Of a stretch of 64,000 nt of DNA, positions 47,390 through 50,307 are shown piece by piece. The DNA lies in the sequence record SRR20825019_2198, one strand, 5' to 3'. The notes beneath the pieces are model-generated. The model saw nothing but the letters and a program-made list of their open reading frames with translations, did not search any database and had not been told where the DNA came from. Every line of letters begins with the position of its first letter. The first letter of the stretch is position 1. The translations under genes and the position numbers were made by a program.

Positions 47390-47411
47390 GATCCTGTCTC
47401 CTTCATCTGCC

Positions 47412-47900
47412 CTAAGCGGCTTTATAAAAACGTCGTTTGGGGGAGTAGGAGAGCACGTCCCGCTCACCATGCTTGAAAAGCATGAAGAGGTCTGCGTCCG
47501 CATCAAACCCATAGAAATCAGGGTCGATGTTGAGCGTGAACCCGCCAGTGAAGGTCAGCTCGAAACAGTCATCCGTTTCATCGTAGGCGATGCTTGTGAG
47601 TGTTTCGCCTTCAAGCTTGTTGAGGATATGATTGGCGCGGGCATTGTCGCTCTCGCGGCGCCACAAAAGCCGCGACTGATCGAGGTAAAGATCCCAATCG
47701 CAACTATAAACCCACAAGTGCCATTCCCATTGCGGTTCACCGGTCACCGCATCATCCGCGCGGGGTTGCCCGAGGTCGAGCGTAATAAAGCCGCCAAAGC
47801 CCCGCCGCGCGCGGGCCACCTTCAGCGGCAGGCTCTCTCGGAAGCTGTTGTACCTTTCTTCGCCGGTCTCACCCGGCCTTAATGTGTATATGGCTGACAT
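47412..47900 (-). CDS. Hypothetical acidic/aromatic protein, immunity-protein-like
   Basis: 162 aa with G.FITLDLG...EWHLWVYSCDW...LTF..GF.L motifs. AAGGA RBS. Confidence 0.7.
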   Translation of the reverse strand: MSAIYTLRPGETGEERYNSFRESLPLKVARARRGFGGFITLDLGQPRADDAVTGEPQWEWHLWVYSCDWDLYLDQSRLLWRRESDNARANHILNKLEGETLTSIAYDETDDCFELTFTGGFTLNIDPDFYGFDADADLFMLFKHGERDVLSYSPKRRFYKAA

Positions 47901-48169
47901 CGTTTTATCCTTTAGCCCTAGGGTCTCATTTTAGTTCGGCAGTATTTCAAAGCTCTTTCACTGCCGGTTCTCTCTCAGTTTTCTCACGTGAAGCGGCTTT
48001 CCGCCTCCTCTACCCCGTTCCTGTTCCCCCGCGCCTTCGGGCTTTTGCCTTCAACTTGACCCGGGGGAACCATACCAGGGGGTTATTTCGTCCTCGCTTT
48101 TCTTCTCACTCAAAACTTGCCGTACTCGGGTTGGTGTCTCATCGTTTTTCGGTACTGCGTTTGGCCATG

Positions 48170-48208
48170 AAAAAACCCCTCCGGGGCGCTGCTCCGGAGG
48201 GGTTTTTT
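48170..48208 (-). terminator. Attenuator terminator in the 5' leader
   Basis: AAAAAACCCCTCCGG-N9-CCGGAGGGGTTTTTT, about 270 nt upstream of the first gene. Confidence 0.85.
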
Positions 48209-48238
48209 GAACCTTCGATCTCTTTTTGGCGTTTCGCC

Positions 48239-48340
48239 TTAGAGTATCTCCCCCTCTGGAACAGCAAGCATCTGACGGACGCAAATAAATTTCGCGCCTT
48301 TCACGGATGCTGCGGTTGTTAGGTTCCAAAGGGTATACAT
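48239..48340 (-). CDS. Putative 33-aa leader peptide MYTLWNLTTAASVKGAKFICVRQMLAVPEGEIL
   Basis: ATG 48340 with TAGGA about 10 nt upstream; TAA at 48241-48239. Overlaps the alternative helices. Confidence 0.6.
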   Translation of the reverse strand: MYTLWNLTTAASVKGAKFICVRQMLAVPEGEIL

Positions 48341-48387
48341 CGGTCTCAAATCCTAAGTCGGCCCACCTCGGGCCTGTTATGATCAGA

Positions 48388-48416
48388 GAATTACGGAAGG
48401 CACACGCAACTGTCAA
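48388..48416 (-). promoter_or_regulatory. Sigma70-type promoter
   Basis: TTGACA (48416-48411), 17-nt spacer, TAATTC (48393-48388). Confidence 0.6.
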
Positions 48417-48593
48417 CAAGAATTATGCGCCTTTATATAATTTTATTTCAAGCATCGGACACAAAAGGAAAAATCACGCTACCAAAAGGTCAGGATTGCC
48501 TAAAAAATGTGAATTCTCCTTCTCGACTCTTGATGCGCAGCTGCTCATGCAGGTGTATACTGTACGCTCAGATTCACAACCGTTTGGATCAGC

Positions 48594-49376
48594 ATGCGCA
48601 CATGGACGCTTTCGCTCGCACTCTCTCTGCTTCTGCTTTCCGCAGCGCCGCAAGCCTGTGCCGATAGTGCCAAAACCGACCGCCACCATATCTTCGCGAC
48701 AGATTGGGGTCTCACGCTGAAATCTGACGGCACTGGTTTCTATAACGACCTCGCGCAGTTGCTGTTCACCACCGACATGGGTGCGATTGATTATGAAATC
48801 CTGCCCTACAGGCGGGCAAAGCGGCATTTCTTTGAGGAGTTTGGCTCCTGCCTTTACCCCAGCTCCACCGAGTATCTGACCGCAACGGGAGACATTCAGG
48901 CAGCGGATAGCTTTATTGGAAGCCGCAGCGTTCTCAGCAACAAGATCCACATTTTCAGCAGGCATGGCACAATGCCCCCCGCGAACTATAGCCTGCTGAA
49001 GGACAAACGCATTGCCTATGCCATGGGGTCGCGCATCCCCTTTGCGCTTGAAGGCACCAACGCCTTTTTCATTGCGGTCGCGGATGAGGTAGACAAAGCA
49101 GAGATGCTGCTTTCCGGCCGGGTCGATATGATCTCTGCTGCCATGCCTGATGTGAAATTCGTGTTCGACAGCCTGGGCGTACCGCTCGCCCCCTATGATG
49201 AAACGCTGGTGGTTGCTGGTTCCGGCATCGGTCTTGTGTGCCATAACTCTCGGGAGAATGTGCTGTTTCTCACGTCCTTCGAGGCCCGGCTTGAGAAACT
49301 TCTCAAATCGGGGGAGTTGCAAGCTTTTCTCAGAAGTCAGGGGCTTAACCCCAGTGACTATCTGAAAAAGCCATAA
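48594..49376 (+). CDS. Periplasmic solute-binding-like protein (family 3-like), paralog 1
   Basis: Signal peptide; WGLTLKSDGTGFYND, PYRRA, MLLSGRVD. Confidence 0.7.
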   Translation: MRTWTLSLALSLLLLSAAPQACADSAKTDRHHIFATDWGLTLKSDGTGFYNDLAQLLFTTDMGAIDYEILPYRRAKRHFFEEFGSCLYPSSTEYLTATGDIQAADSFIGSRSVLSNKIHIFSRHGTMPPANYSLLKDKRIAYAMGSRIPFALEGTNAFFIAVADEVDKAEMLLSGRVDMISAAMPDVKFVFDSLGVPLAPYDETLVVAGSGIGLVCHNSRENVLFLTSFEARLEKLLKSGELQAFLRSQGLNPSDYLKKP

Positions 49377-49515
49377 CCCTACCCCGCACATCCTAACCAA
49401 ATTTTAAGCTCAGGTGCCTACCGTGTGCCCATGGGCGAGGCAAAACCGCCCGCACGACCTTTGGGGGTCTGGCTTATTTTTCGCTCAAACAGCAGCCGAG
49501 CGCATGGAGAAGTTG

Positions 49516-50307
49516 ATGCTGAGGCATTTCCTCGCAACCCTTATGGTCAGCCTTGTACCCGTGATACCGACTGGTTCAGCCCGCGCGCATGACGACGCGC
49601 TGACCCCGCATATCTATGCCACCAGTTGGGGCCTTACTTTGAGCGCGGATGGCAGCGGCTTTTATAACGACTTCGCCCGTTTCACCCTCGGGCCCGAGGA
49701 AACTCTCGACCACTATTACGCCTACCCCTACAAACGCGCCATGCGGCACTTTGAGGAAGAGAATAACGCCTGCATCTACCCCAAAAGTATAACTGCACTT
49801 CAGCGCACCAGCGCGGTGCCCAAAAACGCGAAGCTTATTGAGAGCGAAGCCATGATGCGTTCGCCCCTACGGGTCTTCACGCCACCTGGCACCAACCCTG
49901 TACGCAACGAATATGACCTCCACGGCATGAGCATCGCGTACGCGCTGGGGTCAAACCTTTCCAAAACCATCAAGGCATATGGCAGCCGGTTTGCTGCCAT
50001 CGCTGATGAAACCGACAAAGCCAAAATGCTTTTGGGTGGCAATGTCGACGCCATGCTCGCAAACATGCCGGACGCATATTTTGTCTTCCAGCAGCTAGAG
50101 GTTCCCTTACCGCCAAATGACCCGGCATACATCCCTGTGCCTGCCGCTCATGCGCGCATCGTTTGTCATGACACCGAGGAAAACCGTGCGTTTATCACCC
50201 GGCTAAACCAGCGCATAGAAATGCTTGTGAAAGACGGCGAGATGGCTGCCTTTCTGAAGGCTCAGGGCTTGAACGCGGAAGAATACTTGCCACCTATGGA
50301 GCGCTAG
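49516..50307 (+). CDS. Periplasmic solute-binding-like protein (family 3-like), paralog 2
   Basis: Signal peptide; WGLTLSADGSGFYND, PYKRA, MLLGGNVD; collinear with paralog 1. Confidence 0.7.
   Translation: MLRHFLATLMVSLVPVIPTGSARAHDDALTPHIYATSWGLTLSADGSGFYNDFARFTLGPEETLDHYYAYPYKRAMRHFEEENNACIYPKSITALQRTSAVPKNAKLIESEAMMRSPLRVFTPPGTNPVRNEYDLHGMSIAYALGSNLSKTIKAYGSRFAAIADETDKAKMLLGGNVDAMLANMPDAYFVFQQLEVPLPPNDPAYIPVPAAHARIVCHDTEENRAFITRLNQRIEMLVKDGEMAAFLKAQGLNAEEYLPPMER

Follow-up and report, generated by a model that had tools for sequence, protein, structure and literature searches.

Does a short unit that carries both a promoter and a terminator of its own make a product, or does it decide whether the genes behind it are transcribed? 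This is the question raised by the minus strand between positions 48170 and 48420 of the stretch of DNA considered here (the window, 64,000 nucleotides (nt) of sequence record SRR20825019_2198), which comes from the genus Kordiimonas, a marine, alphaproteobacterial lineage. As read from the sequence, the unit is about 210 nt long and consists of a promoter, a ribosome-binding motif, an open reading frame (ORF) of 33 codons and an intrinsic terminator. It has a divergent ORF of the plus strand (48594-49376) on one side and, on the other, a minus-strand ORF (47900-47412) for a protein of 162 amino acids (aa). An earlier note on this DNA had suggested a leader peptide with mutually exclusive pairings, in the manner of an attenuator, and the comparison with homologous loci now backs this suggestion: the reading frame is kept, the pairings covary, the central segment, B, is placed near the stop codon, and the same gene is linked to the unit. 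We consider it probable, if by no means certain, that this is a ribosome-dependent transcription attenuator controlling read-through into the operon of the 162-aa gene.

The elements on which this reading rests are all present on the minus strand, at the positions at which they had been proposed. The leader ORF occupies 48340-48239 (ATG at 48340-48338, TAA at 48241-48239) and has 33 codons plus the stop, for the peptide MYTLWNLTTAASVKGAKFICVRQMLAVPEGEIL. Segment A (CCCUUUGGAAC, 48333-48323) falls on codons 3-6, including codon 5, the only Trp codon of the frame, and segment B (GCUGUUCCAGAGGGG, 48265-48251) falls on codons 26-30. The terminator (48202-48170) is made of a 5' arm (CCCCUCCGGAGC, 48202-48191), a loop, a 3' arm (GCCCCGGAGGGG, 48187-48176) and a run of U (48175-48170), the 5' arm plus the loop corresponding to 48202-48188. 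In terms of the four-segment layout of the trp leader, A would be region 1 (the anti-antiterminator strand), B would be region 2, having either A or the terminator 5' arm for a partner, and the two arms of the terminator would be regions 3 and 4, respectively. The extent originally given to the feature, 48170-48360, does hold these elements, but it is too short, as the unit starts at a promoter that had been passed over, along with a 5' hairpin and a ribosome-binding motif. The promoter (48416-48388) is of the sigma-70 type, with a perfect -35 box (TTGACA, 48416-48411), a spacer of 17 nt and the -10 box TAATTC (48393-48388), and is preceded by an A/T-rich stretch; a simple promoter scan misses it, as the rule of that scan accepts only -10 hexamers ending in T. 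In the 5' untranslated region, RNAfold predicts the hairpin GGCCC-GAGGU-GGGCC (48374-48360), and a Shine-Dalgarno-like AGGA (48354-48351) is found 10 nt 5' of the ATG. The presumed regulated gene (47900-47412, fam4 in our lists) starts 270 nt past the terminator.

As to the fold, the minimum free energy (MFE) computed by RNAfold for 48165-48395 of the minus strand is -95.3 kcal/mol, compared to -66.8 +/- 5.1 kcal/mol for 200 shuffled sequences (z -5.63), none of which equals it. In this structure A and B form a helix of 11 base pairs (bp) that closes the GCAGCAUC/GAUGCUUGC branch, as had been proposed, and both the inner hairpin and the terminator also form. When B is set against the terminator 5' arm and loop instead, 14 out of 15 positions pair, again in agreement with the proposal. 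A scan of Rfam returned no family at the gathering cut-off. Indeed, even with E values of up to 10 admitted, no match to the leader interval came near its gathering score; the highest-scoring family was His_leader (RF00514), at 25.5 and 23.8 bits versus a cut-off of 49, and these matches were driven by the terminator, while further sub-threshold matches, to NsiR1 and Phe_leader, were likewise aligned to the terminator.

The element is restricted to a single lineage, and it is strictly tied to one gene. A DNA search of 61 related genomes detected the leader in 12, all of the same genus, the genome of the window itself having just one copy. All 12 of these loci keep an ORF of 30-33 codons, and all 12 have the same 162-aa ORF downstream, on the same strand, 212-305 nt past the terminator; the region upstream of the promoter varies among them. 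The 162-aa gene itself is present in 31 of the 61 genomes, these being the window's own genome and 30 of the 31 others of the genus, and is found in none of the 29 searched genomes from outside the genus; it is thus a core gene, near-universal in the genus. The 19 genomes of the genus that had been missed by the first DNA search all have a leader ORF and a terminator upstream of this gene, so that the leader is found upstream, on the same strand, in every one of the 31 genomes carrying the gene (12 plus 19). The same holds for all 14 loci from genome contigs, one of them clipped at the edge of the locus, and for 16 of the 20 metagenome loci, the remaining four having from 2 to about 900 nt of upstream DNA, which is too short. 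A covariance model (R1) built from leaders of the window's type gives a single full-length match in the genome of the window, and all of its full-length matches over the 61 genomes adjoin the 162-aa gene; this model has weak sensitivity (E 4.6e-5 to 0.1) to the other two clades of leaders, and the alignment made with it (A6) was contaminated by reverse-strand matches to the terminator and was excluded from pair counts. The three clades are distinguished by their ORFs. Those of clade 1, the window's type, start with ATG and have 30-33 codons, those of clade 2 (MTNLWTYKP...) have 33-41 codons, and those of clade 3 start with GTG (VTTLWTYQ...) and have 35-37 codons. Clade 3 has additional genes between the leader and the 162-aa gene, namely a NADAR-domain gene (PF08719, E 2e-30) and either one or two small ORFs, and in several loci of this clade the next ORF begins as little as 27-61 nt past the terminator, leaving scant room for a separate downstream promoter.

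Is the leader ORF translated, and if so, is it translated for the sake of its peptide? The reading frame is open from the aligned start to the stop in all of the 38 distinct leaders compared, while frame +1 is interrupted in every one of them and frame +2 in 23. Of the leaders, 29 have ATG and 9 have GTG for a start codon, and this codon is preceded by GGA or GAG at a distance of 4-20 nt in all 38, mostly at -12 or -13. A TTGACA box, with a -10-like hexamer at 16-18 nt, is also found in 38 out of 38, 61-116 nt before the start. The ORFs come in nine lengths, from 30 to 41 codons, and as the frame is kept throughout, the length changes between lineages must all have been of whole codons. At the same time, variable sites number 29, 27 and 28 for the three codon positions, with no excess at the third position, which, taken with the open frame, argues that the frame is selected, while the amino acid sequence is not selected in the way it would be in a working protein. 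The well-kept N-terminal codons, T-x-L-W, coincide with the A strand. On the evidence of these sequences, this is how a regulatory leader ORF would be expected to look. When 1.84 billion proteins were searched with a profile of 30 leader peptides, 13 matched at E 0.001 or better, and the 10 of these that were fetched all represent this leader ORF, some of them with an N-terminal extension from gene calling, pointing to a small, lineage-restricted family; a few gene calls for homologous leader ORFs do exist in the databases. We also considered a type I toxin or some other membrane-active small protein. This candidate was rejected, as the peptides, judging from their sequences, have K, R and E throughout and no long hydrophobic run, and as the third-position excess is absent.

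The comparison called for in the earlier note also extends to the pairings. Within clade 1, RNAalifold recovers the A:B helix, the intermediate and inner helices and the terminator, with changes on both sides at two pairs, in 5 of the 12 sequences. Over all clades, a MAFFT alignment followed by RNAalifold (A5) fails to recover the A:B helix, as its register shifts by one base pair from clade to clade, and for this reason duplex energies free of register were used, along with a separate alignment of the 27 sequences of clades 2 and 3 (A7). In the latter, the A:B helix, the inner hairpin and the terminator are 95.7% paired, compared to 25-53% with slid partners, and 6 pairs of the termination structure are altered on both sides, a number matched by none of 500 shuffles. 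The terminator helix (helix 3) is 98.5% paired, with both-side changes at 2 pairs. For the alternative pairing, B ranks first among the upstream partners of the terminator 5' arm for 23 of 26 leaders and second for the other 3, in which the top window is situated 12 nt further on.

A further argument comes from permutation: were the two strands to evolve independently, the B of a lineage would show no preference for the 5' arm of that lineage over that of another. For eight clade representatives, the energies of the own B:5' arm duplexes sum to -147.0, and none of 7391 derangements is as good. For 16 lineages the sum is -296.4, versus -253.4 +/- 8.3 when permuted, and none of 20,000 permutations is as good. 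By the same 16-lineage test, A:B is likewise equaled in 0 of 20,000 permutations and the terminator's own arms in 3, while the controls, A against the 3' arm and A against the 5' arm, are equaled in 3571 and 12,121, respectively. Thus A:B, B:5' arm and 5' arm:3' arm all co-evolve. Pair by pair, the contiguous register of B:5' arm shows 83.2% pairing and both-side changes at 4 pairs, a level that 0 of 500 shuffles reach, slid controls showing 0-2 such changes. In two leaders, L072 and the clade-1 leader L012, a change in the 5' arm is met by Watson-Crick pairing in B, while the 3' arm of the terminator responds with a wobble or a mismatch only. Judged by these alignments and energies, selection acts on B to keep it complementary to A and to the 5' arm alike, a conclusion with real support, drawn from few events.

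The geometry of the leaders provides another argument. The stretch of B that pairs with the 5' arm is separated at its 3' end from the stop codon by 3-21 nt, and by no more than 16 nt in 37 of 38 leaders; the 5' arm of the terminator starts 27-42 nt past the stop codon in the same 38 leaders. From these distances, a ribosome at the stop codon would cover B and leave the terminator untouched; a ribosome on codons 2-8 would cover A. We infer that termination is conditional, and we infer which state gives read-through, from the following sequence of events. In a leader free of ribosomes, B would pair with A the moment it is transcribed, the terminator would form, and transcription would stop. A ribosome translating as far as the stop codon would cover B, and the terminator would form again. 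A ribosome slowed or stalled in approximately the first two thirds of the ORF would hold A, or keep it from B, and the freed B would then trap the emerging 5' arm, letting RNA polymerase read through into the operon. Folding with A masked, a check proposed in the earlier note, agrees with this scheme in part: in nascent RNA, before the 3' arm is made, at least 7 bp of B:5' arm form in 26 of 26 leaders, but the full-length RNA keeps its terminator in 25 of the 26.

The last result is one of several that weigh against the attenuator. At full length, the antiterminator state is worse than the terminator by 6.1-19.5 kcal/mol, and an earlier variant of the masked folding switched in only 3 of 12 leaders. 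As the terminator wins at equilibrium, any switch must be kinetic; in the E. coli trp leader, too, the terminator is more stable than the antiterminator and the choice is a kinetic one. In the absence of a ribosome footprint, no more than 5 of 26 leaders have an equilibrium fold of the nascent RNA in which A:B forms and B:5' arm does not, and termination in the untranslated leader is therefore not guaranteed, but also depends on kinetics. The comparative data have weak points as well. The control pairing of B with the 3' arm is equaled in only 135 of the 20,000 permutations, probably due to a palindromic CCGG core common to B and the 3' arm. A register of B:5' arm bulged by one base is better paired (90.7%) than the contiguous one, shows no both-side change and is reached by 500 of 500 shuffles. 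None of the four compensatory pairs is seen in more than one sequence, L072 having two of them and L070 and L066 one each. In clade 1, the spacer of 212-305 nt could house a promoter invisible to a simple scan. The leader has no regulatory codon run, and neither its codons nor the genes downstream point to a signal. Finally, contigs from public runs over 47400-48600 amount to weak hints, not to usable expression data.

These contigs are from Logan, with three of the four runs labeled as RNA by guess and one being a metatranscriptome of a relative. Contigs from two studies cover the leader, and both end at 48374, which is the first base of the 5' hairpin and lies 14 nt past the -10 box; this could be the 5' end of a transcript or an assembly break. 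One contig, 48119-48374, extends 51 nt beyond the terminator, and another one, 48174-47822, does not include the leader. No contig covers 48384-48600, and the uncovered parts are uninformative. The pattern weakly hints at a start near 48374-48381 and some read-through.

The systems closest in design are the trp, his, leu, thr and phe leaders, the classical attenuators of the amino acid operons of Proteobacteria. Like these, the Kordiimonas leader has a short ORF with its own ribosome-binding site, predicted to be translated, the mutually exclusive pairings 1:2, 2:3 and 3:4, a region 1 early in the ORF and a stop codon so placed that a finishing ribosome would cover region 2, as well as an intrinsic terminator before presumed regulated genes of the same strand. 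Unlike them, it is longer (30-41 codons), has an extra hairpin between regions 1 and 2, and has a single Trp codon, which is itself part of the A:B helix, and no run of codons; it shows no sequence or Rfam similarity to them other than in the terminator, and the genes downstream, for a family-less 162-aa protein, a DUF4279 protein, a DUF4926-like protein and, in one clade, a NADAR protein, are not biosynthetic. A representative from Alphaproteobacteria is the trpL attenuator of Sinorhizobium meliloti, with its products rnTrpL and peTrpL (PMC6614838, PMC7298713). The absence of a run of any one amino acid, already remarked upon from the window, extends to all clades: region 1 has one Trp codon and no tandem repeats. 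The signal is therefore probably not a single amino acid. Our guess would be that what is sensed is a general slowing or stalling of translation, by stress or by a ribosome-targeting compound, or else a lag between the ribosome and the polymerase.

The alternative that survives best, unlikely as we find it, is a stand-alone small gene: the transcript of 210 nt would be ended constitutively and would serve as a small RNA (sRNA), as the messenger RNA of a protein of 30-41 aa, or as both, while the 162-aa gene, with a promoter of its own, would be merely a conserved neighbor. The unit does have its own promoter and a strong terminator that wins at equilibrium even with A masked. A constitutive terminator, however, needs no upstream strand to follow the changes in its 5' arm, as B does, and the stop codon just past B is left unexplained. 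The length of the clade-1 spacer before the next gene and, in one run, the contig 48174-47822 that lacks the leader fit with separate transcription of the 162-aa gene, but the 27-61 nt found past the terminator in clade 3 do not, and all leaders found, including all full-length matches to the covariance model, are upstream of this same gene. As to a protein product, the N-terminus M-T-x-L-W-T is well kept, and gene callers have predicted the ORF in a few records, but the codons kept are exactly those of the A strand, and the even spread of substitutions over codon positions is unlike that of a protein under purifying selection.

A further proposal, which we hold to be rather doubtful, is that the leader is a sensor of ribosome stalling that switches on a lineage-specific response operon. 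The source of stalling could be a ribosome-targeting compound or arrest by the nascent peptide itself, via the conserved motifs M-T-x-L-W-T-Y or A-Q-x-F-M-R-R. In Bacillus subtilis, vmlR, bmrCD and yxjB are preceded by leader-peptide attenuators that sense antibiotic stalling or poor translation, and such attenuators were reportedly surveyed by Dar et al. in 2016, using Term-seq; yxjB is the subject of PMC6851288. The Kordiimonas leader resembles these stalling-sensing attenuators in that its upstream ORF (uORF) is devoid of amino acid-specific codons and in that, as proposed here, the outcome would be set by the position of the ribosome on the leader. It differs from the antibiotic-responsive ones in that the genes downstream are not known resistance or ribosome factors, the 162-aa gene having no match to a resistance family in Pfam or NCBIfam. 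For the general slowing of translation guessed at above, a precedent from Alphaproteobacteria is the DUF1127 uORF attenuator of S. meliloti, which is reported to monitor translation efficiency by way of C-rich codons that are accessible where the uORF begins (bioRxiv 10.1101/2025.01.31.635925). The design in Kordiimonas, a trp-like 2:3 antiterminator opposed to an intrinsic terminator, differs from this one. If true, the stalling-sensor proposal would link a signal of translation stress to a new rescue or repair function, in the context of a weak fold resemblance of the 162-aa protein to the NFACT-N domain and to an immunity protein and of an ADP-ribose-processing NADAR enzyme in one clade.

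Less likely still is a riboswitch-like or protein-binding RNA, in which A:B would be the P1 helix of a sensor, B the antiterminator strand, and the ORF incidental. A P1, inner hairpins, a P1 3' strand shared with an antiterminator, and a terminator are the parts of many transcriptional OFF riboswitches, and the leader shares with these the closing helix, whose 3' strand can instead pair with the 5' arm of the terminator, and the terminator itself; third codon positions are conserved like the others, and in clade 1 the inner hairpin is near-invariant at the nucleotide level. In contrast to OFF riboswitches, the sensor region here is an in-frame ORF whose core is not conserved between clades and which matches no Rfam family. 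The interval between A and B differs strongly among clades, with changes in length by whole codons, unlike a ligand-binding core, and an incidental ORF would hardly stay open in 38 out of 38 leaders over nine lengths, always with the start codon and the GGA motif, and with the stop just past B. A chance arrangement of hairpins without function is excluded by conservation, the z score of -5.63 being accompanied by presence in 31 of 31 genomes carrying the gene and by covarying helices.

Among these possibilities we thus favor the attenuator, and the comparative data support its assignment as a new, lineage-restricted member of the ribosome-dependent class, absent from Rfam; a literature search returned no paper combining "Kordiimonas" and "leader peptide." Attenuators without runs of amino acid codons are poorly catalogued outside of Firmicutes, and this one adds a case in which compensatory changes support the antiterminator pairing and not the terminator alone. 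The leader also provides a handle on an operon that is core to the genus and whose function is unassigned, as the condition that relieves termination would point to the role of the 162-aa protein and its neighbors.

Some further features of the leader deserve mention. The inner hairpin (GGCGCGAA/UUUGCGUCC, 48298-48276), seen with RNAfold and in the alignment, is near-invariant in clade 1 and is represented by a GCGCA/UGCGC hairpin in the remaining clades; this helix (helix 2) is 97.7% paired, with both-side changes at 3 pairs. Around the stop codon, RNAfold predicts a hairpin in which CUCU...AGAG encloses GGCG/CGCC (48244-48220), and it covaries inside clade 1, CUCU/AGAG alternating with CUUU/AAAG, as read from the alignment. 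The motif AAGGUUC (48215-48209), directly 5' of the terminator, is near-invariant in clade 1. It is complementary to 48341-48346, just 5' of the start codon, and its counterpart in several lineages has complementarity to the GGA motif itself; such a pairing may hide the ribosome-binding site once the RNA is complete. Permutation, however, did not establish a helix joining the ribosome-binding region to the bases 5' of the terminator, 1094 of 20,000 permutations being as good.

The operon in the window includes the 162-aa gene, a DUF4279 gene (47512-46919) and a DUF4926-like gene (46941-46681), the match to DUF4926 being below the cut-off. The 162-aa protein has no match in Pfam or NCBIfam, and its 41 database relatives, of 162-197 aa, are all hypothetical proteins. 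Its AlphaFold model is confident (mean predicted local distance difference test (pLDDT) score 89.3), and a Foldseek search of PDB with it gave no match at E 0.001 or better. With VIA-align, the best match is 8owu_E, a polymorphic-toxin immunity protein (Z 6.9, root-mean-square deviation 3.1 for 91 residues), and Z values of 5.3-6.6 are obtained for NFACT-N domains, which belong to ribosome quality-control factors. Neither the immunity-protein fold nor the NFACT-N fold was accepted, as these Z values are within the range common for unmatched models, and with no clear fold or family, the downstream function gives no firm clue to the signal. Past the DUF4926-like ORF, the operon ends at a strong terminator-like hairpin (46563-46503, minus strand), and the interval 46566-46503 has sub-threshold Rfam scores for the Burkholderia sRNA families ncS54 (28.8 bits versus a cut-off of 43) and anti-hemB (25.9 bits versus 49.5); this is probably just the terminator of the operon. 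Eight loci of clade 3 (L039-L045, L049) have a longer operon in which the NADAR-domain gene is directly 5' of the 162-aa gene. In four of these a small ORF ends in ...GG(C/Y)RGKN(T/S)PANW(R/K)(R/K)FNP, and an ORF of 71-98 aa with the motif AASFDLFD.LAARH is also observed in this set.

Taken over its full length (48172-47895), the spacer that separates the leader from the 162-aa gene is not significantly structured (z -1.54). It contains a conserved block, 48132-48090 plus 48083-48024 on the minus strand, of the form ACCCGAGURCGRCAnGUUUUGAGUG...GCGAGGAC, followed by a long CCCCC/GGGGG hairpin. The block aligns in 11 of the 12 clade-1 loci, and a motif search found similar sequences in only 2 of 15 other loci (L033 and L040). 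On the other side of the leader, the plus-strand ORFs 48594-49376 and 49414-50307 have no Pfam match at E values of up to 0.1; they are adjacent paralogs, with signal-peptide-like starts and shared motifs such as ATxWGLTLxxDGxGFYND.

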